From NCBI GenBank assembly GCA_038235595.1, contig JBBSTU010000001.1, positions 2,947-66,946 of the forward strand: a stretch of 64,000 bases of DNA. The letters run 5' to 3'. Origin of the DNA: Actinomycetales bacterium (GTDB taxonomy: Bacteria > Actinomycetota > Actinomycetes > Actinomycetales > Dermatophilaceae). Positions 1 through 24,898 of the stretch are shown here, one piece after another. Within the stretch, counting starts at the first letter, position 1; every line of letters starts with the position of its first letter. The notes under the pieces were generated by a model that saw nothing but the letters and a program-made list of their open reading frames with translations, ran no database searches and was not told the DNA's origin. A program made the position numbers and the translations under genes.

Positions 1-588
1 GAGCACCCCACGCAGGCCCTGCTCGACGCCTACACGTTGCGCACCCGCCTCGGCGAGCTCGACGGGCGGCACGTCGTGCTCGTCGGCGACCTGACGCACT
101 CGCGGGTCTTTCGCAGCAACGTGATCACGCTGAAGACCCTCGGTGCCCGTGTGACCGTCATCGCCCCCCCGACCCTGATGCCGAGCGGCATCGGCACGTG
201 GAGCGCCACCGAGGGGTTCGCCACCGGCTGGGACCTCGATGCCGTCATCGACGGCGACGATGCGGTGGACGCGATCATGATGCTGCGGGTGCAGCGGGAA
301 CGGATGAGCGGTGGCTACTTCCCGACGGCGCGCGAGTACACCGTCGGGTACGGGCTCACGCGCGAACGGCTTGAGCGCCTCGTGACCCGCAACCCCGAGG
401 TGCTCGTGATGCATCCGGGGCCGATGAACCGAGGCTTGGAGATCGCGGCGGACGCCGCAGACGCGCCCCAGTCGGTGGTGCTCGACCAGGTGTCGGCCGG
501 TGTGGCTGTGCGAATGGCGGTGCTCTACCACCTGCTCGCCGGCGACGAGTCGGCCAGGGACGACGCAGAGAGGAGCGTGTCCGCATGA
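1..588 (+). CDS. pyrB: aspartate carbamoyltransferase catalytic chain, 3' part (5' end lies upstream of the window)
   Basis: Frame 1 is open from base 1 and reads [20 protein letters not shown] (ATCase HPTQ motif), later [13 protein letters not shown]. The stop at 586-588 overlaps the next ATG (ATGA). Confidence 0.9.
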
Positions 589-1898
589 GCCGGCTGCTGA
601 TCAAGGGGGCCCGACCGCTCGGCGCCGACGCGACCGACCTGTTGGTCGAGAACGGTGTCATCCGCGAGGTCGGGTCGCTCGGTCGCGAGCCCGCCGACCT
701 GACCATCGACGCCGACGGACTGGTTGCCCTCCCGGGTCTGGTCGACCTGCACGTGCATCTGCGTGAACCCGGGCGCGAGGATGCCGAGACGATCGCCACG
801 GGGTCGGCGGCGGCCGCCGCCGGTGGGTTCACCGCCGTGTTCGCCATGGCCAATACCTCACCCGTGACCGACACTGCCGAGGCGGCCGAACGGGTGCTCG
901 ACCTCGGGCGGGCCTGCGGCCTGACCGACGTCGTGCCCGTGGGTGCGGTCACCAAGGCCCTCGAAGGGGCCGAGCTGGCCGAGCTCGGGCTGATGGCCCG
1001 ATCCCGGGCCCGGGTGCGGGTTTTCTCCGACGACGGTCACTGCGTGCACGACAGCCGCATCATGCGTCGGGCCCTGGAGTACATCCGGGCCTTCGACGGC
1101 GTCATCTCCCAGCATTCCCAGGACCCTCGGCTCGCCGATGCGTCGGCCTGCTGCCACGAGGGGGAGCTCTCGGGCCGCCTTGGACTTCCCGGGTGGCCGG
1201 GCATCGCCGAGGAGTCGATCGTCGCCCGAGACGTGATGCTCGCCGGGCACACCGGCTCGCGGGTGCACGTCGCGCATGTGTCGACCGCCGGTACGGTCGA
1301 GGTGATCCGCTGGGCCAAGGCCCGGGGCATCGACGTGACGGCTGAGGTCACCCCCCACCATCTGGCCCTCACCACCGACCTGCTCAGCGGCTACGACCCG
1401 GTGTACAAGGTCAACCCGCCGCTGCGACCCTCCGATGACATCGAGGCCCTGCGTGCTGGGCTGGCCGACGGCACGATTGACGCGGTGGCCACCGACCATG
1501 CGCCGCACGCACGTCACGACAAGGAGCACGCCTTCGTCGACGCGGCCTTCGGCATGCTCGGCCTCGAGACGGCACTCGCCGTGGTCAGCGACCTGCTCGT
1601 GCGACCAGGACTGCTCGGGTGGGCCGATGTGGCCCGGGTCATGTCGAGTGCCCCCGCACGGATCGGTCGCCTCCAGGGGCACGGGATGCCGCTCGAGGTC
1701 GGCAACCCGGCCAACATCACCCTGATCGACCCCGACCGAGAGGTGACCGTCGATGCTGCGAAGAGCCGCAGCCGCAGCCGCAACAACCCGTGGCACGGGC
1801 GGACCTTCCGGGGCGCGGTCGTGACGACGCTGCTCCGCGGCGCCGTCACGCACACCACCGAACGAGAGCTGACCACTGTGACCGAGAGCGAGATCTGA
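585..1898 (+). CDS. pyrC: dihydroorotase
   Basis: 437-aa ORF with amidohydrolase metal motifs [10 protein letters not shown] and ATDHAPH. It lies between pyrB and carA with overlapping stop/start codons. Confidence 0.92.
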
Positions 1899-3066
1899 TG
1901 CTGAACCTGCCCAGCCAGCACCGAGACGAGGCCGTGCTCTTGCTCGAGGACGGTCGACTGTTTCGGGGCTCCTCCTACGGCGCCGTCGGCGAGACGGTGG
2001 GCGAGGCCGTCTTCTCCACCGGGATGACCGGTTACCAGGAGACGCTCACCGACCCGAGCTACCACCGGCAGGTCATCGTGATGACCGCTCCGCACGTCGG
2101 CAACACCGGCGTCAACGTCGACGACGATGAGAGCCGCCGCATCTGGGCCGCGGGCTACGTCGTGCGTGACCCCGCCATCCGGCCCTCGAACTGGCGATCG
2201 TCTCGCAGTCTCGAGGACGAGCTGCGCGCGCAACACGTGGTTGGGATCTGTCAGATCGACACTCGCGCCCTGACCCGTCATCTGCGCGAACGAGGCTCGA
2301 TGCGGGTCGGGCTGTTCAGCGCCGCCGCCGCCGAGCGGCCCACGCCCCAGCTGCTCGACCTGGTCAAGAACAGTCCGCAGATGACGGGAGCCGCCCTCGC
2401 GGCCGAGGTCAGCACCGACCAGCCCTACGTCGTGCCTGCCGAGGGGGAGAAGCGCTTCACGGTGGCCGCGCTCGATCTGGGCATCAAGGCCATGACTCCC
2501 CACCTGCTGGCCCGGCGCGGCATCGAGGTGCACGTGCTGCCCGCTGCGTCGACCATCGACGACGTGCTCGCAGTCGGCGACGCCGGACCCGACGGGGTCT
2601 TCTTCTCCAACGGCCCGGGTGACCCGGCGACAGCCGACGCCGAGGTCGCGCTGTTGCGCGAGGTGCTGGGGCGCGGCATCCCCTTCTTCGGCATCTGCTT
2701 CGGCAACCAGCTACTCGGCCGAGCCCTCGGGTTCGACACCTACAAGCTGAAGTACGGCCACCGCGGCATCAACCAGCCCGTGATGGACCGCACCACGGGC
2801 AAGGTCGAGGTAACGGCCCACAACCACGGGTTCGCGGTCGACGCCCCCCTGGACACGCCGAGCGAGACGCCCTTCGGGCAAGCCCACGTTTCGCACGTCT
2901 GCCTCAACGACGACGTGGTCGAGGGGCTGGAGCTGCGCCGCGCTGGGCGCCTGACGGCGTTCTCGGTGCAGTACCACCCCGAGGCGGCTGCCGGCCCTCA
3001 CGACGCTGCCTACCTGTTCGACCGGTTCAGCGATCTCATGCTCGAGCTCTCGGAGGTCTCGGTCTG

Positions 3067-3067
<1 letters not shown>
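1898..3067 (+). CDS. carA: carbamoyl-phosphate synthase small (glutaminase) subunit
   Basis: N-terminus is [24 protein letters not shown], with GATase motifs [10 protein letters not shown] and HNHGFAV. The ORF-track start at 1619 overlaps pyrC, so I chose the in-frame ATG at 1898, which abuts the pyrC stop. Confidence 0.92.
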
Positions 3068-6383
<3,316 letters not shown>

Positions 6384-6387
<4 letters not shown>

Positions 6388-7295
6388 GCGACCTGGTGAC
6401 CCAGCCCGTGTCGCCCGGCCGTCGGGCCCGGGTCACCCAGGAGCAGGCCGAGGTGATCGCGACCCGACGGGTCGGGTCGTACCAGCACCTGACGCTCGTC
6501 GCGCCCGGTGTGGCCGAGCTGGCCCGCCCGGGTCAGTTCGTTGCTCTGGCGGTCGGCGGCGAGTCGAGCAGCACCCTCCTGCGTCGCTCGTTCTCGATCC
6601 ACAAGGTCAGCCCGAGCGGCACCTACGGTGGCACCGTCGAGATCGTCGTCTCTGCGGTCGGGGCCGGCACCCGGTGGATCGCCTCGCGACAGTCCCACGA
6701 CCTGGTCGACGTCGTGGGGCCGCTCGGGCGGGCCTTCCCGCTGCCGACGGAGCCGGTCGCGTGCGTTCTCGTCGGAGGGGGGTACGGCAGCGCACCCCTG
6801 TTCTGGTTGGCCGCCGAGCTGAGGGCGCGCGGGTGTCATGTCGAGATGGTGCTGGGCGCGGCGAGTGAGGACAAGCTCTTCGGGGTGACTCTCGCCCGGC
6901 GCAGCAGCGACGGGGTAAGCGTCACCACCGACGACGGGTCGGCGGGGCAGCGGGGCTGGGTCAGCGACGTGCTGCCCGAGGTGATCACCAGCTCGGGTGC
7001 CGGTGTCGTCTACGGGTGTGGGCCGATGGGGATGCTGCATTCGATCACCGAGATCGCCTCGGCCCACGGCGCGGTCGCCCAGGTCGCCGTCGAGGAGTCG
7101 ATGGCGTGCGGTGTCGGCATCTGCATGACCTGCGTCATGCCCGTGGTCGGCAACGACGGCCTGACGCGCATGGTGCGCTCGTGTGTCGAGGGCCCGGTCT
7201 TCCGGGGCGACCGGGTGCGCTGGGATGCGTTCTCCGGCAGCGGAGCCCACGTTCCTGCCGATGCCGTGGGCGCGCCTCGTACGGGAGGGCACTGA
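6384..7295 (+). CDS. pyrK: dihydroorotate dehydrogenase (class 1B) electron-transfer subunit
   Basis: 303 aa. Flavin-reductase-type RRSFSI motif and a C-terminal 2Fe-2S cysteine cluster [10 protein letters not shown]...[12 protein letters not shown] overlap with carB; followed directly by pyrD. Confidence 0.85.
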
Positions 7296-14554: not shown

Positions 14555-15913
14555 TTGGTGGCCGGCTCCAGCACCCGCCTGCGCATCGTTCTCGGTGTCA
14601 GTGGTGGCATCGCCGCCTACAAGGCCTGCTCACTCCTGCGGCTGTTCACCGAGGCGGGCCACGATGTGACGGTCGTGCCCACGGCCGCCGCCCTCGAGTT
14701 CGTCGGTGCCCCCACCTGGGCCGCCCTCTCGGGCAAGCCGGTCAGCACCGACGTGTGGACCTCCGTCCATGAGGTGCCGCACGTGCGCATCGGGCAGCAC
14801 GCCGACCTGGTCGTGGTCGCTCCGGCAACGGCTGACATCGTCGCCAAAGCCGCCCACGGGCTGGCCGGCGACCTGCTCACCAGCACGCTGCTGACCGCCC
14901 GGTGCCCGGTGGTGTTCGCCCCGGCCATGCACACCGAGATGTGGGAACACCCGGCCACCCGCGCCAATATCGCCACGCTGCGTGAGCGAGGGGCGCACGT
15001 CATCGACCCCGCTCACGGTCGACTCACGGGTGCTGACACCGGCGCGGGACGCCTGCCCGAGCCAGACGAGCTCTACACAGCCTGCCTGGCTGTCGTGGCG
15101 GCCGCGGCCACCCCAGCGACCAGCACCACAACCACCACCAGCACCCCAACCACCCCCAGCACGCCGACCACCACCAGCACGCCGACCACCACCACGGATG
15201 CCGGTGAGCGCCCGGCATCCGGTGACAGTCGTCTTCGGGGGCGGCGCTTCGTCGTGTCGGCGGGCGGAACCCGCGAACCGCTCGACCCGGTGCGCTTCAT
15301 CGGCAACCGCAGCTCTGGCAAGCAGGGTTACGCCATCGCGCGCGCGGCACTGGCGCGGGGGGCCGTTGTCACGCTCGTAGCGGCCAACGTGGCTCTGCCG
15401 ACCCCCGAGGGCCTGATGCTGGTCACGGTCGAGACGACCGAGCAGCTCAAGGCGGCGGTCGACGCGGCGGCGGCCGAAGCCGACGTCGTGGTGATGGCGG
15501 CGGCCCCCGCCGACTTCCGGCCCGCGCACGCCAACGCTCACAAGATCAAGAAGGACCCCGACGATCCGGCCGCGGGTCTGCGGCTCGACCTGGTCGAGAA
15601 CCCCGACATCGTCAAGGGCCTGGTGGCCACCCGGGCCGAACACGGCACCGCGCGGCCGGTCATCGTCAGCTTCGCGGCTGAGACGGGTGACGCCGACGGC
15701 TCGGTCATGCAGCACGCGCGGGCGAAGTTCGCGCGCAAGGGCAGCGACCTGCAGGTGGTCAACGAGGTCGGAGACGGTCTCACCTTCGGCCGCGACGACA
15801 CCACCGTGCACCTGCTGCGCCGAGGAGACGACGAGGCGGTCACCGTGGGCCCCACCTCCAAGGATGCTGTCGCAGAGGCGGTTGTGGACGCCATCGAGCG
15901 GCTCCTGACGTGA
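14555..15913 (+). CDS. coaBC: bifunctional phosphopantothenoylcysteine decarboxylase / phosphopantothenate-cysteine ligase
   Basis: CoaC motifs VSGGIAAYKA and APAMHTEMW; CoaB motif IGNRSSGKQG. The two halves are joined by a Thr/Pro-rich linker. The start could be TTG 14555 or GTG 14558. Confidence 0.92.
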   Translation: MVAGSSTRLRIVLGVSGGIAAYKACSLLRLFTEAGHDVTVVPTAAALEFVGAPTWAALSGKPVSTDVWTSVHEVPHVRIGQHADLVVVAPATADIVAKAAHGLAGDLLTSTLLTARCPVVFAPAMHTEMWEHPATRANIATLRERGAHVIDPAHGRLTGADTGAGRLPEPDELYTACLAVVAAAATPATSTTTTTSTPTTPSTPTTTSTPTTTTDAGERPASGDSRLRGRRFVVSAGGTREPLDPVRFIGNRSSGKQGYAIARAALARGAVVTLVAANVALPTPEGLMLVTVETTEQLKAAVDAAAAEADVVVMAAAPADFRPAHANAHKIKKDPDDPAAGLRLDLVENPDIVKGLVATRAEHGTARPVIVSFAAETGDADGSVMQHARAKFARKGSDLQVVNEVGDGLTFGRDDTTVHLLRRGDDEAVTVGPTSKDAVAEAVVDAIERLLT

Positions 15914-15986
15914 CCGGTAAACTCATGCGCCACACCATCCATCACCAGCCAGCCGTAGTCACCGACCCGAGTTAGGGAGCTTCCTC

Positions 15987-17207
15987 GTGCCCGCACGCCT
16001 GTTCACGTCCGAGTCCGTCACCGAGGGGCACCCCGACAAGATCTGTGACCAGATCAGCGACTCGATCCTCGACGCCATGCTCCGTGCTGACCCGCACGCC
16101 CGAGTCGCGGTCGAGACGATGGTCACCACGGGCCTCGTGCACGTCGCCGGCGAGGTCTCGACCGTCGGCTATGTAGAGATCCCCGCGATCGTTCGCGAGA
16201 CGATCCTCGAGGTCGGTTACGACGGGTCGCAGAAGGGGTTCGACGGCCGCACCTGCGGTGTCTCCATCTCCATCGGGGCCCAGTCGCCCGACATCGCCCA
16301 GGGGGTCGACACCGCCCACGAGAACCGGCACGGCGGCATCGACCCGCTCGACAAGCAGGGCGCCGGCGACCAGGGCCTGATGTTCGGGTACGCCTGCGAC
16401 GACACGCCTGAGCTGCTCCCCCTGCCGATCTACCTCGCGCACCGTCTGGCCGAACGGCTCACCGCGGTGCGCAAGGGTGACGTGCTGCCCTACCTGCGCC
16501 CCGACGGCAAGACCCAGGTCACGATCGCCTACGACGGCGATCGCCCGGTCTCACTCGACACGGTCGTGCTCTCCACCCAGCACGCGCCAGACGTGTCTCT
16601 CGAACGGATGCTCGAACCCGACATCCGCGAGCACGTCATCGAGCCGGTGCTGCACGAGCTGGCCAGCAGCGGCACCCACCTCGACACGACCAGCTTCCGC
16701 GCGCTGATCAACCCGACCGGCCGCTTCGAGATCGGCGGCCCGATGGGGGATGCCGGTCTCACCGGCCGCAAGATCATCGTCGACACCTACGGCGGCATGG
16801 CCCGTCACGGCGGCGGCGCCTTCTCGGGCAAGGACCCGAGCAAGGTCGACCGCTCGGCCGCGTACGCGATGCGCTGGGTGGCCAAGAACGTCGTGGCCGC
16901 TGGGCTCGCCAGCCGGTGCGAGGTTCAGGTCGCCTACGCGATCGGCAAGGCGCAGCCGGTCGGCCTCTACATCGAGACCTTCGGCACCGAGACCGAACCG
17001 GTCGACAAGATCCAGTCGGCCATCACCACCGTGTTCGACCTGCGACCCGGCGCGATCGTCGACGCCCTCGACCTGCTACGCCCGATCTACAAGCCGACCG
17101 CGGCGTACGGCCACTTCGGTCGCACCGAGGCGCCCGGCATCGAGAACGGCTTCACCTGGGAGCGCACCGACCGGGTCGAGGCGCTCCAGGCCGCCGTCGC
17201 CGGCTGA
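15987..17207 (+). CDS. metK: S-adenosylmethionine synthase
   Basis: 406 aa with [24 protein letters not shown] and [16 protein letters not shown]. Confidence 0.97.
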
Positions 17208-17223
17208 GGCTGGGTTCGCCCTC

Positions 17224-19452
17224 GTGGCGACTGACGAGCTGGCCGGGCGATCAGCGCCGCGAACGGCAGCGCGCGATCCGGGGGAGGCCCCCGGTCGCAG
17301 CCTGCCGGTCGCGGCCGTGGCCGTGGAGACACCCCTCGCGCACCTCGACCGGGTGTTCGAGTACACCGTTCCCGACGAGCTGACGGCGGATGCCGTTCCC
17401 GGCGCGCGGGTTCGAGTGCGGTTCGCCGGCCGTGACCTCGAGGGCTTCGTGCTCGAGCGGCGGGCGCAGCCGGAGCACGACGGGCGACTCTCGCCGCTGC
17501 GACGGGTGGTCAGCCCCGAGCCGGTGCTCACCCCCGAGGTACGCACGCTTGCCCGGGCCGTGGCCGACCGTTACGCCGGCACACTGAGTGACGTGCTCCG
17601 CCTCGCGTTGCCGAAGCGTCACGCCACGGCCGAACGCAACCTGCCTCTCCACCCGCCGGCGCACGCCGCCCCGGACCCTGCCGAGACAGCCGACCCTGCC
17701 GACCCTGCCGACCCTGCCGGGCAGGCCGACGCTGCCGGGCAGGCCGACGCTGCCGACTCGAGAACGCCCTTCCCGCCTGCCCCCGAACCGGGGCCGTGGG
17801 CGGCCTACCCGGCCGGGCCGGCGTGGCTGCGCCGGCTCGCGGAAGGAGGGTCTCCGGGCGCTGCGTGGTCAGCCCTTCCCACGCGCCGTCGTGACGACGA
17901 CTGGCCCCGGGCCTTCGCCGTGGCGGCAGCCACGGCCCTGGCCGGCGGTCGCGGGTCGCTGCTCGTGGTGCCCGACCATCGCGATGTCGCCCGTCTCGAC
18001 CGCGAGCTCACCGAGGTGCTCGGCGTGGGCCGGCACGTTCGCCTCACCGCTGACCAGGGCCCCCAGGCCCGGTACACCGCCTGGCTCAAGGTGCTGCGGG
18101 GGCACGTCCGCGTCGTCATCGGCACTCGAGCCGCCGCTTTCGCGCCGGTGCACCACCTGGGTCTGGTCGCCTGGTGGGACGACGGCGACGACCTGCTCGC
18201 CGAGCCGCGTGCCCCGTACCACCAGACCGGGGTCGTGCTCTCTCTGAGGGCCGGCCAGTGCGGTGCCGCCTTGCTGGCCGGTGGCTTCGTTCGCAGCCTT
18301 CGAACTCAGGTCGAGGTCGAGGCCGGTCGGCTCGTCGCGGTCTCGGCCGCAGCGACCGTCGTGCGTGCTGCCGCACCGGTCGTCACGGTGGCCGGCGAGG
18401 GCCTCGACGAGGAGCGCGACGGCCCCGCGGCCCGAGCCCACCTGCCGTCGCGCGCGTGGCGTGTCGCCAAGGACGCCCTCGTTGACGGTCCGGTGCTCGT
18501 GCAGGTGCCGCGGCGCGGCTACCTGCCGTCGCTGTCGTGCGCGGAGTGCCGATCGGCCGTGCGCTGCGCCCGGTGTGCCGGCCCGATGGCGCTGGGGTCG
18601 AGCGGGGCACCGCCGGCCTGCCGTTGGTGCGGCACCACCATGGCGACCAGCGGTTTCGAATGCACCCACTGCGGTGCGCGTCGGCTGCGGTCGGCGGTCA
18701 CCGGGGCGCGGCGCACGGCCGAGGAGATCGGTCGGGCGTTCCCGGGCGTGCCGGTGATCGCGTCAGGATCGGGGGAGGTGCTGGCCGAGGTGGGTCCCGA
18801 ACCGGCCATCGTCATCGCCACGCCCGGGGCCGAGCCGGTCGCAGAAGGCGGGTACACGGCCGTGCTGCTGCTCGACGCCTGGGCCAGTCTCGACCTTCCC
18901 GTGCTCGATGCCCCTCTCGAGTCGCTGCGTCGCTGGGCCGCGGCGGCGGCCCTGGCCCGGCCCGGCCGAGCGGTGGTGCTGAGCGGAGTGCCCGAGGTGG
19001 TGGTGCTTCCCGCCGTGGAGGCCCTCGTGCGTTGGGACCCGGCCTGGCTCGCCGAGCGTGAGCTGGCCGAACGTCGCGAGCTGGGCCTGCCCCCGGCGGC
19101 CCGCTTCGTGCAGCTGACCGGGCCGCGTCGGGCCCTGGACGACGCTCTGACCCACCTCGACCTCCCGGCGGGCGCCTCCGTGCTCGGGCCCATGCCGGTC
19201 TCGACGAGCAGAGCGGGTGAGGCCGCGCCGGCGGGTCAGGTAGCCCCGGCGGCTCAGTCGAGCCACGCACGTCATGAGCGTCCTGGCGACCGACGCGACG
19301 ACACCGGCCCCGACTGGCACGTCTTCGTGCGGATCGACTCCGAGCGCACCCTCGAGCTGACCCGCGCGTTGAGCTCGCTGCGTGCCTTCCGTTCAGCCCG
19401 CAAGGACGCCGAAGTCGTCACTGTTCGGGTCGACCCGCACGAGAGCTGGTGA
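17224..19452 (+). CDS. priA: primosomal protein N' (PriA), actinobacterial type without recognisable ATPase motifs
   Basis: N-terminal 3'-DNA-binding-like region VETPLAHLDRVFEYTVPDEL...RVRVRFAGRDLEGFVLERR and a Cys-rich Zn region CAECRSAVRCARCAGPM...CRWCG...CTHCG. The start is uncertain: GTG 17224 is the first candidate after the metK stop, and ORF-track 16750 overlaps metK. Confidence 0.8.
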   Translation: MATDELAGRSAPRTAARDPGEAPGRSLPVAAVAVETPLAHLDRVFEYTVPDELTADAVPGARVRVRFAGRDLEGFVLERRAQPEHDGRLSPLRRVVSPEPVLTPEVRTLARAVADRYAGTLSDVLRLALPKRHATAERNLPLHPPAHAAPDPAETADPADPADPAGQADAAGQADAADSRTPFPPAPEPGPWAAYPAGPAWLRRLAEGGSPGAAWSALPTRRRDDDWPRAFAVAAATALAGGRGSLLVVPDHRDVARLDRELTEVLGVGRHVRLTADQGPQARYTAWLKVLRGHVRVVIGTRAAAFAPVHHLGLVAWWDDGDDLLAEPRAPYHQTGVVLSLRAGQCGAALLAGGFVRSLRTQVEVEAGRLVAVSAAATVVRAAAPVVTVAGEGLDEERDGPAARAHLPSRAWRVAKDALVDGPVLVQVPRRGYLPSLSCAECRSAVRCARCAGPMALGSSGAPPACRWCGTTMATSGFECTHCGARRLRSAVTGARRTAEEIGRAFPGVPVIASGSGEVLAEVGPEPAIVIATPGAEPVAEGGYTAVLLLDAWASLDLPVLDAPLESLRRWAAAAALARPGRAVVLSGVPEVVVLPAVEALVRWDPAWLAERELAERRELGLPPAARFVQLTGPRRALDDALTHLDLPAGASVLGPMPVSTSRAGEAAPAGQVAPAAQSSHARHERPGDRRDDTGPDWHVFVRIDSERTLELTRALSSLRAFRSARKDAEVVTVRVDPHESW

Positions 19453-22400
19453 TCAGGCTCGGCCGGTAGGGCGGGTCGACGCGTCGACCGTCCTCTCCTC
19501 ACGCAGCGACGGTGACACGGTTGACGGCATCCGCCAGGGCCGCCAGGTCAGGTCGGGAAGCAGGGTGACGGCCCGGCCGGCGTCGAGGCAGACCAGGCGG
19601 ATCCACTCGTTCCCGACGAGCTGGGTCAGGGTCTCGTGCCGCTCGACGATGCCGGCCACGAGGTCGGGTTCGGCGTCGACCACGGCCAGGAGGCGGACCG
19701 GCTCGTGAACCAGGCTCTGCGACAACGGCCCCGTGCCAGGTGGCTGTCGGAACAAGGACTGCCAGGGCAGGCCGGTGCGCAGGTCACCGTGGGCGCCGGT
19801 GAGAACGCCGATGTCTCCGACGACGTTGTGGGTGGTCTTGTCGCCGGCACCGAACGTGTCCGGGTCAACCGCGGAGAAGTAGTACTGGGCGTTGATCCAT
19901 TGTGCGACGACGAGCGGGGCGGTCAGCAGCTGTTCGAGCACGTGGCCCGCTCGGTCACTGTGACGGTCGTACCCGTGCAGGAACACCCTCGAGCCGAGAT
20001 CGGCACCGATGGTGAGCTGGCGCGGCCCGAAGACGATGGCGGCATTACCGGCGAGGCCCCACTCCGGGGTGGGCTCTGACCAGTCGGCGGCCCGGCGGCC
20101 GACGGGGCGCGACACGGGTCGGGTGGTTCGGCCCGACACCGGCAGCAACCGCTCGCGCTCGAGGGCTGCGCGCCGGCCGGCTGCCGCCAACGATGCCTCG
20201 ATGTCGGGGTGCTCACCCGGCCGGGCCAGGGTGATCGCGTCGGTCGACGTGTCGTGCAGAGCCGCCACCGCGACAGTGTCAACCGGCAGGCGCAGCCCCT
20301 GGTTCGCCAGCTGCGCGCGTACCTGCTCGTCGTTGAGGGCATCGACGAGCAGGGCCGCGTTCACGCGACCGTCGTTGCCTCCGCAGGCGCCGCAGTCGTA
20401 AGCCGTGCCGAACGCGTTGTTCTCGGTCGTCGACCCGTGGCCGCACACGACGATGAGGGGCGCGAAGTTCTCGGTCAGCCCGGTGCTTCGCAACGCCGCG
20501 ATCGCGAGGTCGACCTTCTCGTGAAGGCCGAGGTCGGTGACCAGTGGAGCCTGGTCGGTGCGGGGGTGATCACCGATCCAGCCGCGCACGAACCGCCGGG
20601 TCGTCGCGGGGGCGAGCAAGGCGCTCGTGGACGAGAGCGCGGCCAGGATGCCGCCGCCCTCGGCCACCACCAGTGCCCCCAGGGGCGTGGCGCTGACGGC
20701 CGTCGCAGACCGGTGCAGAACCTGCCGGAACCGCAGCGGCGTGGGCTGGCGGCGAGCGGTGAACGACGGCTCCACGAGGGCGGGGCACTGGTCGTGGGCC
20801 ACCCCGTCGGCGTTGAGGTAACGCACGGCCGCGCCGAAGAAGCCGGCGTACCCGTAGGTGTGGTGGTCGCCCGACTCCTCGAGGTGGCGGCGGACCCGTT
20901 CGGAGCGGACGTCGATGCACCACAGCGACTGGCTCTGCGGGCGACCAGCGACGCCGGCGGCCCGGGTCTCGGTGCCAGATCTGGGGCTGGGAACGTCGAG
21001 ATCGGAGGTCGCGGACGGCCCCACGATCTGGGTGATCAGCCACTCCTCGACGCCGATCTCGAGGGCGCGCTGCCAGATGCTTGCCGGCTCGGTGTCGGTA
21101 ACTCCCGCCGGACCGGCAGGCCCGGTCGCAGCCTCGACCTCGACCCTCGACAGCACGAGCTCGGTTCGCGGTCGGCCGCGTGAGACCGCCCCTGAGAAGA
21201 GCACGTCGTGCGCCATGCGCAGGGCAGCGAGCTGCAGCAGGGGGGTCGTCTCACCGGACCGGCGGGCTCGCCAGGAGGCGTGCGCGGCCCAACCGGGGGC
21301 GGAAGCCAGGGTCGCCACCAGGTAGCCGACCAGCAGGTCGGCCGGCAGCTCGACTCGCCGTGCCAGCTCTTCGATCGCAGCGGCAGGCTCCTCGGGCAGC
21401 GTCCGTGCCCAGGCGGCCGCACCTCGGATGCCGGTCGCCGCGTCGTAGCTGGGGCTAGCGGCTGCCCGACGCCAACGGTCCCAAGGGCCCGACGGGTCGA
21501 GATCGGGGGACCCGGGCGTGTCGGATGCTGTTGTCGGCCAGGCACGCTGGGCCCAGAGGGCGGCGTGAGTATCGACCAGCTCGACGGCGTGGGTCACGGA
21601 TGAGGGGGGCAGGGCCGCACAGAACCTCAGCACCGAGACGGGGTCAAGCGGCTTGGCGGATGCCGCTCGGACGGCCACGCGCGAACGCGTGTCAGCCACG
21701 AGCCGCTCGATGGTCGCGCCGGGATCCAGCTCGCTCGTCGCGCCTGTACCCGACCCGTCCGTACCCAGACCGACGGTGCCGTCTACGGGCGTGTCGGCGA
21801 CCTCTGCGAGGGCGGCCGCCAGGTGGTGGGGGTGGATCCGGCCGGAGTCGAACAGGTCAAGGTAGTAGCGAAGTGGTGCCCGACCGGCCACCGGAGCCGC
21901 TCCAGCGAGGGAATGCGCCCGGCTCGCAACGGCCAGGGCGTCGTCGAACGGCATCGACTCGAGGCGGGCCAGCGGGTTGGCCGCCACCATGTTGCGCAGT
22001 GGCCAGGAGGTGCCGACGGTCGCGGCGGCGGCTACCACTGCCGCACCGGCGACCGGGCCGCGCACCTGGCTGCGCGAGTCGGACGTGCTGACACAGCGGG
22101 GCAGCGATGCGAAGCGTCGGCGGCGAGCCATCGGCGCCAAGGCCGTCGGGAGCAGCCGCACGGCGAGGGCCGAGTCTGGCCTTGCGGTCAGCGAGCGGCT
22201 GCCGACGACGACGGCCGCGCCCGCGATCACGAGACCGGCGACGAGCACGGTCGCCCAGAGTGGCTCCCAGACGGCATCTCGGGGGAGCGCCGGGTTCAGG
22301 GCGTGCTCCCAGCCCACAAGCACCCAGCCGTAGAGCCCGGCCACGATCCCGGCCGCCACCACCGCGACCAGGCTCTGCGCGCCCGTCGCCCGGGGCAGGC

Positions 22401-23571
22401 GAGCGGCTGCGTGCGCAGCCACCGCGGCCGACAGCACGACCAGGGTCACGGGGATGAGGGCCGCCATCCCTGCCGTGGCCACGAGCTCGCGGGCAGCGGC
22501 GGCGCCGACCAGCCCGGCGACCACGGCCGCGACCACGGCGGCGAGCCACGGGGCGAGACGGTGAGCGGGGATCGGGGCGGCCGGCGTGGCGCGGGCGGCC
22601 GGCGTGGCGGGGGCGGCGGGGCCGTGTTCGCGGTTCCGGGCGATGGCGCCACCGGCACGCAGGAACATCCACGACTTGTAGGCGCCGTGCCCGAGGAGGT
22701 GCATGAGCGCCATCGCGGGCAGCCCCAGGCCGAGCTGGACGCACATGTAGCCCATCTGGCTCGTCGTCGAGCAGGCCAGCCGACCCTTGACGTCGGAGCG
22801 GACTCGACCGGCCCACGCGCCGGTCACGACGGAGGCGGCTCCGAGTACGAGCAGGCCGATCAGAACCACGGGGGCCGCCCGGAAGAGCGGCCAGGCCAGC
22901 ACGCCGAGCACTCCCGCGCCGTTGACCACACCGGCGTGCAGCAGCGCCGATACCGGTGACGGCGCCTCGGCCGTCTCGGCGAGCCACCGGTGCGACGGAA
23001 CGAGGCCGCTTCGCGTCACACAGGCGACGACGAGCAGCACGGCAACGACCACGACAGGCGCTCCACTCGTGACCTGGTCGAGACGGGTGCGGTCGAGGGA
23101 CGGCAACCACCCGAGGCCGATGACGACCGCAGACCAGAGGGCGAGGTCGCCGAACAACAGGTGCCGTCGCATCGTGCGGGCCGCGGCCGGTGCCCGACCG
23201 GTGCCGGTGCGCGCGACGACGAGACCGACGGCCAGCCCGCTGACGGTCCACCCGAGCGCGACGGTGACGAGACTGGCGCTCGAGACCATCACTACGAGGC
23301 CGAGCAGCGCTGCGAACAGTGCTCTTCCGGCAGGTGCCAGGCCGTCGCGTCCGCGTAGGTTGGTCAGCGAGTAGGTCGTGACGACCCAGACGAGGAGGCC
23401 GACGAAGCCCAGGAGCAGCGTCGAGATGACGTCGAGATAGAGACCGACACTGACGGGGCCAAGGGCGTGGGCGAGCTGCCAGGGGTGACCGAGGAACGCG
23501 GCCGGGGCCGCAGTCACACCCGCCAGCACCACGAGAACGCTGACGCGACGGGTCCAGAGAAACCAGTTCAT
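19453..23571 (-). CDS. fusion protein: N-terminal NuoL/MrpA-like proton-conducting membrane module (DabB/MpsA-like, aa 1 to ~490) plus C-terminal DUF2309 module (DabA/MpsB-like, aa ~520-1372); putative energy-coupled inorganic-carbon uptake system
   Basis: Single uninterrupted 1372-codon ORF. The N-terminal part has NuoL-type motifs HRWLAETAEAPSPVSALLHAGVVNGAGV, KGRLACSTTSQMGYM and HLLGHGAYKSWMFL. The C-terminal part has DUF2309 hallmarks WPLRNMVAANPL, LWCIDVRSERVRRHLE, VVCGHGSTTENNAFGTAYDCGACGG and GDIGVLTGAHGDLRTGLPWQS. Confidence 0.8.
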   Translation of the reverse strand: MNWFLWTRRVSVLVVLAGVTAAPAAFLGHPWQLAHALGPVSVGLYLDVISTLLLGFVGLLVWVVTTYSLTNLRGRDGLAPAGRALFAALLGLVVMVSSASLVTVALGWTVSGLAVGLVVARTGTGRAPAAARTMRRHLLFGDLALWSAVVIGLGWLPSLDRTRLDQVTSGAPVVVVAVLLVVACVTRSGLVPSHRWLAETAEAPSPVSALLHAGVVNGAGVLGVLAWPLFRAAPVVLIGLLVLGAASVVTGAWAGRVRSDVKGRLACSTTSQMGYMCVQLGLGLPAMALMHLLGHGAYKSWMFLRAGGAIARNREHGPAAPATPAARATPAAPIPAHRLAPWLAAVVAAVVAGLVGAAAARELVATAGMAALIPVTLVVLSAAVAAHAAARLPRATGAQSLVAVVAAGIVAGLYGWVLVGWEHALNPALPRDAVWEPLWATVLVAGLVIAGAAVVVGSRSLTARPDSALAVRLLPTALAPMARRRRFASLPRCVSTSDSRSQVRGPVAGAAVVAAAATVGTSWPLRNMVAANPLARLESMPFDDALAVASRAHSLAGAAPVAGRAPLRYYLDLFDSGRIHPHHLAAALAEVADTPVDGTVGLGTDGSGTGATSELDPGATIERLVADTRSRVAVRAASAKPLDPVSVLRFCAALPPSSVTHAVELVDTHAALWAQRAWPTTASDTPGSPDLDPSGPWDRWRRAAASPSYDAATGIRGAAAWARTLPEEPAAAIEELARRVELPADLLVGYLVATLASAPGWAAHASWRARRSGETTPLLQLAALRMAHDVLFSGAVSRGRPRTELVLSRVEVEAATGPAGPAGVTDTEPASIWQRALEIGVEEWLITQIVGPSATSDLDVPSPRSGTETRAAGVAGRPQSQSLWCIDVRSERVRRHLEESGDHHTYGYAGFFGAAVRYLNADGVAHDQCPALVEPSFTARRQPTPLRFRQVLHRSATAVSATPLGALVVAEGGGILAALSSTSALLAPATTRRFVRGWIGDHPRTDQAPLVTDLGLHEKVDLAIAALRSTGLTENFAPLIVVCGHGSTTENNAFGTAYDCGACGGNDGRVNAALLVDALNDEQVRAQLANQGLRLPVDTVAVAALHDTSTDAITLARPGEHPDIEASLAAAGRRAALERERLLPVSGRTTRPVSRPVGRRAADWSEPTPEWGLAGNAAIVFGPRQLTIGADLGSRVFLHGYDRHSDRAGHVLEQLLTAPLVVAQWINAQYYFSAVDPDTFGAGDKTTHNVVGDIGVLTGAHGDLRTGLPWQSLFRQPPGTGPLSQSLVHEPVRLLAVVDAEPDLVAGIVERHETLTQLVGNEWIRLVCLDAGRAVTLLPDLTWRPWRMPSTVSPSLREERTVDASTRPTGRA

Positions 23572-23578
23572 GGGAAGC

Positions 23579-23584
23579 AGAATA
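23579..23584 (-). promoter_or_regulatory. candidate -10 hexamer (TATTCT on the - strand) 7 nt upstream of the fusion-gene ATG; implies a leaderless mRNA
   Basis: The - strand reads GTGTATTCTGCTTCCCATG. There is no SD, and a TAnnnT hexamer sits at leaderless spacing. Confidence 0.35.
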
Positions 23585-23592
23585 CACGTAAC

Positions 23593-23614
23593 ACAGTTCG
23601 CGTATTACAGTTCG
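23593..23614. promoter_or_regulatory. direct repeat ACAGTTCG-N6-ACAGTTCG in the divergent intergenic region; candidate operator
   Basis: Perfect 8-mers at 23593-23600 and 23607-23614. An overlapping imperfect palindrome AATACACG (23581-88) / CGCGTATT (23599-606) is also present. The region is locally AT-rich. Confidence 0.35.
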
Positions 23615-23635
23615 TACCAAGCAGGCGTCGCCGGT

Positions 23636-23641
23636 TAGGGT
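23636..23641 (+). promoter_or_regulatory. candidate -10 hexamer TAGGGT 5 nt upstream of the regulator ATG (leaderless)
   Basis: GGTTAGGGTGAGGCATG. There is no SD. Confidence 0.3.
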
Positions 23642-23646
23642 GAGGC

Positions 23647-23937
23647 ATGGACCAGGGGACTCGACGAACGTGGACCTTTCTGAGCAACCACGGTCATGTG
23701 CTGGTGGCCATCAGCCGCAACCCCCACGCTCGCATTCGGGATCTCGCGGTCGACGTGGGAATCACCGAACGGGCCGCGCAGCTCATCCTGCGCGATCTGG
23801 AGGAGTCGGGCTACATCACCAAGGAGAAGGTGGGGCGACGCAACGTCTACCGTCTCGCCGCCGAAGGCCGGCTGCGACACCCTGCCGAGTCCACGGTGCG
23901 GATCAAAGCGCTCCTTGCGCTCTTCGAGGAAGCCTGA
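23647..23937 (+). CDS. small winged-helix (ArsR/MarR-like) DNA-binding protein
   Basis: 96 aa: TFLSNHGHVLVAISRNPHARIRDLAVDVGITERAAQLILRDLEESGYITKEKVGRRNVYRL, a helix-turn-helix plus wing pattern. Two other frames are open here but lack any recognisable fold. Confidence 0.7.
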   Translation: MDQGTRRTWTFLSNHGHVLVAISRNPHARIRDLAVDVGITERAAQLILRDLEESGYITKEKVGRRNVYRLAAEGRLRHPAESTVRIKALLALFEEA

Positions 23938-23971
23938 GGCGCGACCCACGGGCGTGCCGTAACGTCGGAGA

Positions 23972-24898
23972 GTGAGCCCCCGAGACCTGACGACCGCCCG
24001 GGCGCTGGCGCTCGCGCTCGAGGTTGAGGTGAACGTACTGGTGCGTGCTGTGGCGCGCGACCAGCGTCAGGAGGGCCACGATGTGAGGACGGCACTCGCC
24101 GCCGCGACGCATACGCTGGGCCGGCTGACGGAGTCGCTCGAGGCCGCTGGCGGTCCGTCCGGATGGACGGGCTCGGTCGGGTCTGCCCGTCCCGAGCCGG
24201 TCGACGTGACCGTGCCGGTGCTGGGGGTCGACGGCTGCCGTGGTGGTTGGGTCGGCGCGGTTCTCGAGCCCGGCGCGCCTCGCCCTCGCGTCGCCGTGGC
24301 CCGGAGCATCGCCGAGCTCGTCGAAACGGTACGTACCTCGCTCGGCGTGGAAGTGGTGGGCATCGACATCCCGATCGGTCTGCCCGACAACACGGTTCGC
24401 CAAGCCGACGGCCTCGCCCGCAAGGCGCTGCCCGGCAAGGCCTCGTCGGTGTTCTCGACACTGACCCGGGCGGCGTACTCGGCGCCCGACCGCGCCACCG
24501 CCGACACCGTCAACCGCTCGCGGTGCGGCCAGGGGGTCGGGGCGCAGGCGTTTGCCCTACGCGACAAGATCGTCGAGGTCGACGCGTGGGTGCGCTCCCG
24601 CCCTACGGTGACGGTCATCGAGGTGCATCCTGAGCTGTCGTTCGCCGCCATCGCCGGCTCCCCGATCCTGCCCAACAAGAAGTCGGATGCCGGCCGCGCG
24701 GCCCGGCTCGAGGCGCTGCGTGGCGTCGGCATCGCCTCACCCAGCATCCTCTCGGGGTCCGGGTACGGCGCCGACGACGTGCTCGACGCCTGCGCGGTCG
24801 CCTGGACCGCCGCCCGACACTCGCAGGGTGTCGCCAGGTCGCTGCCGACAGAGGCCGAACGCTTCTCGGACGGCATCCCCGCAGCCATCTGGAGCTGA
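23972..24898 (+). CDS. DUF429-family protein (RNase H-like fold, function unknown) with a ~78-aa N-terminal extension
   Basis: The core PVLGVDGCRGGWVGAVLE...VVGIDIPIGLPD...EVHPELSF...DDVLDACAVAWTA matches my recollection of DUF429. TAACGT (23960-65) lies 6 nt before the GTG at 23972 and supports this start. Alternative GTG starts exist at 24206-24218. Confidence 0.6.
   Translation: MSPRDLTTARALALALEVEVNVLVRAVARDQRQEGHDVRTALAAATHTLGRLTESLEAAGGPSGWTGSVGSARPEPVDVTVPVLGVDGCRGGWVGAVLEPGAPRPRVAVARSIAELVETVRTSLGVEVVGIDIPIGLPDNTVRQADGLARKALPGKASSVFSTLTRAAYSAPDRATADTVNRSRCGQGVGAQAFALRDKIVEVDAWVRSRPTVTVIEVHPELSFAAIAGSPILPNKKSDAGRAARLEALRGVGIASPSILSGSGYGADDVLDACAVAWTAARHSQGVARSLPTEAERFSDGIPAAIWS

Follow-up and report, generated by a model that had tools for sequence, protein, structure and literature searches.

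Could one polypeptide serve as a complete inorganic-carbon pump in an actinobacterium that is probably a heterotroph? This question is raised by a gene on the minus strand (19453..23571) of a 64,000-nucleotide stretch of DNA from an Actinomycetales bacterium of the Dermatophilaceae (contig JBBSTU010000001.1 of assembly GCA_038235595.1, positions 2,947 to 66,946), hereafter called the window. The gene, designated dab, joins a membrane module of the DabB (MpsA) type to a zinc-site module of the DabA (MpsB) type. A preliminary description of the locus had presented this fusion as a self-contained candidate pump and had implied that it was new. Architecture, residue conservation, synteny and promoter geometry were all observed directly in our analysis, and the first part of that description holds. 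The implied novelty does not: fusions are plentiful in databases, natural and engineered ones have already been published, and the fused architecture, the order of the modules and their functionality are known in the literature. The window gene is an intact, ordinary member of this known fused family. By analogy with the characterized systems, we put at roughly 80% the probability that it encodes a functional single-polypeptide DAB-type inorganic-carbon pump, i.e. a vectorial CO2 hydratase driven by the proton-motive force that would supply the cell with bicarbonate.

The fused gene and its domains

The dab open reading frame (ORF) comprises 1372 codons plus a stop codon (19453-19455), begins with ATG and contains no internal stop, as seen in both the ORF listing and the translation. 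Pfam searches placed two domains in this one ORF, both far above their cut-offs: Proton_antipo_M (PF00361) at residues 98-313, with 96.9 bits for a cut-off of 21.5, and DabA (PF10070, DUF2309) at residues 514-1324, with 604.9 bits for a cut-off of 25 (E 3.2e-181) and a match that runs over profile positions 3-747 out of 747. The G+C content at third codon positions (GC3) of the dab frame is 0.86 along its entire length, which is typical of the genuine genes of the window, and an identical (100%) protein of 1372 aa (P0001) was found in an NCBI-derived protein collection. Furthermore, a composition scan detected no GC anomaly in the dab region and recent horizontal transfer of the gene is therefore not indicated.

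Single-sequence searches of PDB matched the window protein to both subunits of the DAB2 complex of Halothiobacillus neapolitanus (entries 9rd0, 9rd8 and 9rd9), namely DabA2 (9rd0_A, 4.5e-83) and DabB2 (3.3e-22). A profile built from 30 fused homologues gave 4.6e-181 with DabA2 (9rd0_A) and 2.7e-58 with DabB2 (9rd0_B); the latter match, at 201 bits, is stronger than that to the best NuoL/ND5 chain of complex I (154 bits). When the membrane module alone served as the PDB query, DabB2 ranked sixth. Together with the Pfam results, these alignments bear out the identification of a single-polypeptide DabB::DabA (MpsA::MpsB-like) protein in which B precedes A. All the motifs quoted in the preliminary description (HRWLAETAEAPSPVSALLHAG, STTSQMGYM, HLLGHGAYKSWMFL, WPLRNMVAANPL, WCIDVRSE, CGHGS...DCGACGG and GDLRTGLPWQS) are present in the translation, and the codon coordinates that it gave are arithmetically right (20911-20919 for C885/D887, 20437-20439 for H1045 and 20392-20394 for C1060). 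One figure has to be corrected: the spacing between CGHGS and DCGACGG, given as 15 residues, is actually 11.

The DabA module and its zinc site

The DabA module extends over residues 514-1372 (19456..22032, on the minus strand as are all features of dab given below). According to PF10070, the match to DabA2 and the AlphaFold2 (AF2) model, it is made of a helical N-terminal domain followed by two domains that resemble beta-carbonic anhydrases. In the structure of DAB2, the zinc is held by Cys351, His524 and Cys539 plus a water molecule, Asp353 pairs with Arg355 to hold this water and is no direct ligand, and Glu444, carried by a finger, completes the proton path (Lo et al. 2026, PMC13144422).

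Alignment of the window protein to 9rd0_A recovered all of these residues. The zinc ligands C351, H524 and C539 correspond to C885, H1045 and C1060, and the D353-R355 dyad that holds the zinc-bound water to D887-R889. The C885-I-D887-V-R889 segment is encoded at 20905..20919 and the stretch from H1045 to C1060 at 20392..20439. The finger glutamate E444 corresponds to E971 (20659..20661), located in an amphipathic helix-loop-helix (residues ~948-999) whose helices also appear in the AF2 model. Around the active site, S890, H1106 and D1111 match the residues of the water network (S356, H585 and D590), and A909 and L1173 match the conserved active-site residues A376 and L658.

The Cys/His/Cys zinc site and the D887/R889 dyad are invariant across 120 relatives, E971 is invariant in our alignment (A1), and the distance from H1045 to C1060, 15, equals that from H524 to C539 in DabA2. 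These data support an intact metal site in the fused protein. The preliminary description had reached the same view from the spacings, which do match those of DabA2; however, it had counted the Asp of the Cys-x-Asp motif among the zinc ligands, whereas this residue is the partner of the Arg in the dyad.

The membrane module and its junction with DabA

The membrane module covers residues 1 to ~463 (22183..23571) and contains 14 predicted transmembrane (TM) helices, on the basis of hydropathy, of helices TM7-TM15 in the AF2 model and of the profile match to DabB2. It shares with NuoL, NdhF and MrpA the PF00361 fold, a broken TM7 and a His-Lys chain along TM8 and TM11. However, the NCBIfam models of NuoL, MrpA and hydrogenase-4 subunits match it with scores far under their cut-offs (e.g. 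148 versus 380 bits). Hence, the module is antiporter-like but is none of these subunits. Unlike NuoL and MrpA, it has neither the long lateral helix nor TM16, since it ends at about residue 463 and is followed by short helices. Moreover, nuo and mrp neighbours are absent, dab being flanked by priA and a winged-helix gene.

Conservation counts over the 120 relatives single out D142, H212, K262, H291, H295 and K299 as channel residues. D142 aligns with D185 of DabB2, and the five others correspond to H254, K305, H334, H338 and K342 of NuoL in the E. coli numbering, which is consistent with our alignments. All the functional residues named for the DAB2 structure were found and are invariant or nearly so among these relatives, with the exception of the TM7 lysine. 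At the position of this lysine (K229 in NuoL, K235 in DabB2), alignments place R187 (codon 23011..23013). Of the ion pair formed by K235 and D185 in DabB2, the window protein therefore keeps the aspartate, D142, and has an arginine as its partner. Arg occupies this position in 120 of 120 fused homologues and likewise in unfused actinobacterial DabB proteins; those of Bacteroidota, Myxococcota and Proteobacteria keep Lys. The invariant TM7 Arg of the actinobacterial DAB clade could mark a variant coupling mechanism. The TM7 lysine is reported as "retained" from NuoL and not as family-defining, and the K235A substitution in DabB2 cuts growth yield by only 30-60% (Lo et al. 2026, PMC13144422). 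In addition, the position of the TM5 glutamate of NuoL is neutral in both proteins according to profile alignment (T109 in the window protein and I151 in DabB2), and a substitution of this kind is taken by Lo et al. 2026 (PMC13144422) to lock an "open" state.

The two membrane modules also differ at their N-terminal end. The window module begins ~38 residues later than DabB2, profile position 4 being aligned with DabB2 residue 42, and a single helix, where DabB2 has two, precedes the TM3 equivalent, which gives 14 helices versus 15. Since there are 14 helices and the N-terminus is positively charged, both ends of the module are predicted to be cytoplasmic, and the DabA module would therefore lie inside the cell, where the preliminary description had placed it.

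The two modules are connected in a continuous frame by a linker (residues ~464-513; 22033..22182) that goes from the last TM helix to the first helix of the DabA N-terminal domain. Among 98 fused homologues, the distance from TM11 to the WPL motif ranges from 185 to 287 residues. AF2 was run on residues 173-1372, thus leaving out TM1-6, with an alignment of 86 sequences, and returned one confident unit (pLDDT 86.5, pTM 0.90). The model comprises TM7-TM15, the helix-loop-helix of the finger, and short helices and a hairpin in the linker. A Foldseek comparison of this model with a PDB fold library that extends to 2026-04-08 and lacks 9rd0 gave, for the membrane part, only NuoL/ND5-type matches.

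Distribution and origin of the fusion

Fused proteins are common. When the whole protein was searched against clusters at 90% identity, 118 of the top 120 combined PF00361 with PF10070, in lengths of 1185-1478 aa. An exhaustive HMMER search over 1.84 billion cluster representatives (50% identity) yielded 1550 matches at E<=1e-30, and 74 of the best 150 among these 1550 are at least 1150 aa long. NCBI names the fused relatives either "putative inorganic carbon transporter subunit DabA" or "Na-translocating system protein MpsB", and JGI names both halves.

We also surveyed the loci themselves, using one genome per GTDB species and checking the ORFs of the best 80 loci for DabB and DabA motifs. 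A single fused ORF is present at 29 of them, nearly all labelled Actinomycetota. These fused loci belong to Terracoccus, Humibacillus, Phycicoccus, Nostocoides, Terrabacter, Nocardioides, Marmoricola and Aquipuribacter, and to metagenome-assembled genomes (MAGs) of Nanopelagicales, Propionibacteriales and Mycobacteriales. Identity to the window protein reaches 88% in Humibacillus sp. DSM 29435 and 84% in a Terracoccus MAG. The same single ORF thus runs across the junction in independently assembled genomes of relatives. The retention of this ORF in over 100 protein clusters and in the genomes of 29 representative species, with identities of 35-88%, means that the junction is under selection. 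The other loci come from Bacteroidota, Myxococcota, Planctomycetota, Proteobacteria, haloarchaea, Microbacterium, Nocardiopsis and Acidimicrobiia. Their dabB and dabA genes are separate, adjacent and in the B-to-A order wherever both were recovered, and in most phyla such separate genes often overlap.

In a neighbour-joining tree of the DabA module, which carries no bootstrap values, the fused genes all group in a single clade, whose sister group consists of the unfused actinobacterial genes; one contig-edge fragment located inside the fused clade was not classifiable. This suggests one fusion event followed by spread. At one locus (L014, contig CALQPL010000059.1), a fused dab again lies beside a winged-helix gene, and the MAG bears the label "Bifidobacterium breve". 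Mis-binning or mislabelling of this contig is suggested by a promoter region of low GC and by a place in the tree among other Actinomycetota.

Comparison with known systems

A "DabA:DabB fusion protein" of Acidimicrobium ferrooxidans was used as a topology argument by Desmarais et al. 2018 (bioRxiv 10.1101/476713), and this natural fusion is also cited by Fan et al. 2019 (PMC6689103) and Lo et al. 2026 (PMC13144422). The latter authors attached DabA2, by its N-terminus, to the C-terminus of DabB2, since the two-subunit complex fell apart; this engineered DabB2-DabA2 fusion, which was used for the cryo-EM structure, equals the two-gene form in complementing E. coli deficient in carbonic anhydrase (PMC13144422). 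A minireview on dissolved inorganic carbon toolkits does not mention fusions. In the literature that we searched, citations of fusions name A. ferrooxidans only, and no description of the fused clade of Intrasporangiaceae/Dermatophilaceae, Nocardioidaceae and Nanopelagicales was found. As one more intact member of a clade with hundreds of members in databases, the window gene is of modest value in itself. Our survey nevertheless reveals a large and apparently monophyletic fused clade in Dermatophilaceae/Intrasporangiaceae, Nocardioidaceae, Nanopelagicales and their relatives. Such natural single-gene DABs could be handy parts for engineering inorganic-carbon uptake. They could also be stable structural targets, as two-subunit DAB2 had to be fused artificially.

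The A. ferrooxidans fusion, described as a single-subunit DAC, shares with the window protein the one-polypeptide architecture and the phylum Actinomycetota, but its host is an iron-oxidising autotroph. It may be an independent event, since dabB and dabA are separate at the surveyed Acidimicrobiia loci (L070 and L071) and since L070, the only one of the two included in the tree, falls in the unfused sister clade.

With DAB2, and with its engineered form "Dab2", the window protein has in common the two modules, their B-to-A order, the Cys-His-Cys zinc site, the Asp-Arg dyad, the finger Glu and the His/Lys path. Besides the differences described above in the membrane module, it departs from DAB2 by being a natural fusion with a linker of ~50 residues and by low identity in the DabA N-terminal domain. 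Their hosts differ too: that of the window protein is likely a heterotroph, whereas H. neapolitanus is a carboxysome-bearing chemoautotroph. The MpsAB system of S. aureus also combines PF00361 and PF10070 in a heterotroph, and MpsA is likewise predicted to have 14 TM helices. MpsAB and carbonic anhydrase can stand in for each other, and growth at atmospheric CO2 depends on MpsAB. However, this system consists of two separate gene products from a distant Firmicutes lineage, and a coupling to Na+ has been proposed for it.

Proposed mechanism and alternative explanations

An MpsAB-like role, i.e. the supply of bicarbonate to a heterotroph at ambient CO2, would fit the locus, since the window is a housekeeping region (pyrC, carB, coaBC, metK, priA, rsmB, trpE and gltB) and since no RuBisCO or carboxysome gene was found among the genes scanned in its 64 kb. 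In the mechanism that we propose, the N-terminal 14-helix module would be a DabB/NuoL-like proton channel, whose cytoplasmic C-terminus would run through the linker into the DabA module, where a Cys-His-Cys zinc site would be buried and from which an amphipathic finger is predicted to dip back into the membrane module. CO2 would enter the cell by diffusion. Protons flowing down the proton-motive force through the channel and finger residue E971 would activate or gate the buried zinc site, which would hydrate CO2 one way only and thereby trap the product as bicarbonate. This bicarbonate could then feed carboxylases and carbamoyl-phosphate synthetase at ambient CO2. Expression would start from a leaderless sigma-70-type promoter, and the divergent 96-aa winged-helix protein would probably bind, as a repressor, a 20-bp palindrome located in the promoter spacer. 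In this scheme, catalysis, coupling ion, transport direction and repression are all transposed from DAB2 and MpsAB by homology.

Several points weigh against this proposal. The TM7 lysine is replaced by R187 and an arginine cannot shuttle protons, although the K235A variant of DabB2 loses only part of its activity. The first TM helix of DabB2, which is also that of NuoL, is absent from the module. The function of the actinobacterial fused clade as a whole is assigned by homology. Furthermore, there is disagreement in this family over the coupling ion, which is H+ for DAB2 whereas Na+ has been proposed for MpsAB.

This last point underlies the alternative that survives best, although we consider it unlikely: the gene would encode a sodium-coupled MpsAB-like system, acting as a Na+/bicarbonate symporter or as a cation-translocating complex that generates membrane potential, and not a proton-driven CO2 hydratase. 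MpsAB, a homologue, did complement an E. coli strain deficient in Na+/H+ antiporters and was proposed to be a Na+/HCO3- symporter. The "Na-translocating" name given by NCBI to some fused relatives goes in the same direction, and the replacement of the TM7 Lys by Arg in the actinobacterial clade could reflect an ion handling different from that of DAB2. However, the features that define the CO2-hydration mechanism (zinc site, Asp-Arg dyad and finger Glu) are all invariant. The His/Lys proton path of the NuoL type is intact as well, even if sequence alone cannot identify the coupling ion, and DAB2 neither requires nor transports Na+ (Lo et al. 2026, PMC13144422).

It is still less probable that dab has diverged as a paralogue and now serves another purpose, such as pH homeostasis, the release of CO2 or a function without catalysis; R187 and the missing helix would then be signs of lost or altered coupling. 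The presence of Arg at TM7 in every actinobacterial relative and the lack of the ~38 N-terminal residues of DabB2 are compatible with such a divergence, all the more so as the function of the fused clade is read from sequences. Against this, Arg keeps the charge required for an ion pair with the conserved D142, MpsA is functional with 14 predicted helices too, and the remaining functional residues are under strong purifying selection. In addition, the regulator family described below also pairs with SbtA-type transporters, which points to inorganic-carbon supply. Lastly, an artefactual fusion, in which a frameshift or assembly error at nt 22010-22140 would have joined adjacent dabB and dabA genes (one lost base could have such an effect, and L019, L023 and L025 look split or frameshifted), is excluded for practical purposes, because the fused ORF recurs in independent assemblies (29 of 80 loci, and 74 of the best 150 representatives with at least 1150 aa) and forms one clade, its GC3 being high in one frame.

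Promoter, candidate operator and divergent regulator

For the proton-driven CO2 hydratase that we favour, the region upstream of dab offers indications on expression. The ATG at 23571 is the first possible start after an upstream in-frame stop, and the N-terminus that it defines is conserved in Humibacillus and Terracoccus. A -10 hexamer, TATTCT (23579..23584, minus strand), ends 7 nt before this ATG. Cross-locus comparison revealed the same spacing of 7 nt between the -10 and the start codon in 22 of 22 loci, with a strict TAnnnT in 16 and a close variant in 6, and many of these loci also have a TTGACA -35. Since the hexamer sits exactly 7 nt before the start codon in all 22 loci, leaderless transcription of dab, already suspected in the preliminary description, is supported. 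A generic promoter scan of 19200-24100 found nothing because the -35 of the window is weak, and the promoter was recognised only by cross-locus comparison.

The promoter spacer is covered by a candidate operator, ACGCG-AACTGTGTTA-CGTGT (23584..23603, minus strand), a shared motif with a 5-10-5 palindromic structure. It overlaps the -10, the last T of the palindrome being the first base of the hexamer. In a fixed frame, the motif ACnnG-N10(AT-rich)-CnnGT fits 19 of 26 promoters, of dab and sbt genes in different genera, including three Sbt_1 promoters. The inner operator bases are complementary at 33 of 52 positions, in sequences that are related and so are not independent samples. Since the candidate site fills the promoter spacer, its location suggests that the palindrome acts in repression. 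A 14-nt tandem repeat (CGAACTGTAATACG CGAACTGTGTTACG) also overlaps the palindrome in the window, whereas the pair given by a repeat search of the intergenic spacer was uninformative.

A gene encoding a 96-aa winged-helix protein (23647..23937, plus strand; PF13412 HTH_24, 2.5e-6) is divergent from dab and separated from it by a 75-bp spacer. Databases give only generic names to its family. Homologues are divergent and adjacent at 19 of the 29 fused loci, two of which lie at contig edges, and at six unfused actinobacterial loci, in line with the small dedicated regulator that the preliminary description had proposed. None was found next to the DABs of other phyla in the surveyed loci. Among six homologues of the regulator that were checked, three are adjacent to and divergent from PF05982 Sbt_1 (SbtA-type bicarbonate transporter) genes, one is beside a fused DAB and two are in unrelated contexts (pairings of the family being noted at L086, L094, L097 and L089). 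It is possible, though we advance this only tentatively, that the 96-aa protein belongs to an undescribed actinobacterial regulator family dedicated to inorganic-carbon uptake; no paper describing the pairing between regulator and transporter was found in the literature searched. This regulator-operator module, common to two unrelated classes of inorganic-carbon transporters, is the most novel lead of our analysis, the TM7 Arg found throughout the clade being another one. If it were a repressor responsive to CO2 or bicarbonate, the winged-helix protein would be a new sensor-regulator of carbon supply in heterotrophic Actinobacteria. Conserved and shared with SbtA-type transporters, this regulator provides a directly testable entry to the sensing and regulation of carbon supply in non-photosynthetic members of this group.

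Genomic context

The surroundings of dab in the window (585-7295 and 14555-19452) comprise genes for a pyrC-like dihydroorotase, carB, a pyrK-like gene, coaBC, metK and priA. The priA gene (plus strand, ending at 19452) and dab (minus strand, stop codon at 19453-19455) converge with zero intergenic bases, and a generic terminator scan found no terminator-like hairpin in 19200-24100. The order metK-priA-dab-winged-helix gene-DUF429-saccharopine dehydrogenase recurs in Humibacillus sp. DSM 29435 (L002), whereas it differs in the other genera. Since their neighbourhoods differ between genera, dab and the winged-helix gene move as a two-gene unit.

Another gene family recurs near these transporters. 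A DUF6671 (PF20376) gene is located directly downstream of the fused dab, with a 4-nt overlap, in Nocardioides-type contigs (L089-L092, positions 117-1085). The DUF429 gene of the window (23972-24898), which lies downstream of the regulator, was considered as its counterpart and proved to be unrelated. In Sbt_1 loci (L094-L096, positions 4297-5151), DUF6671 is found directly downstream of the winged-helix gene. DUF6671 is thus a second uncharacterised gene linked to inorganic-carbon transporters.

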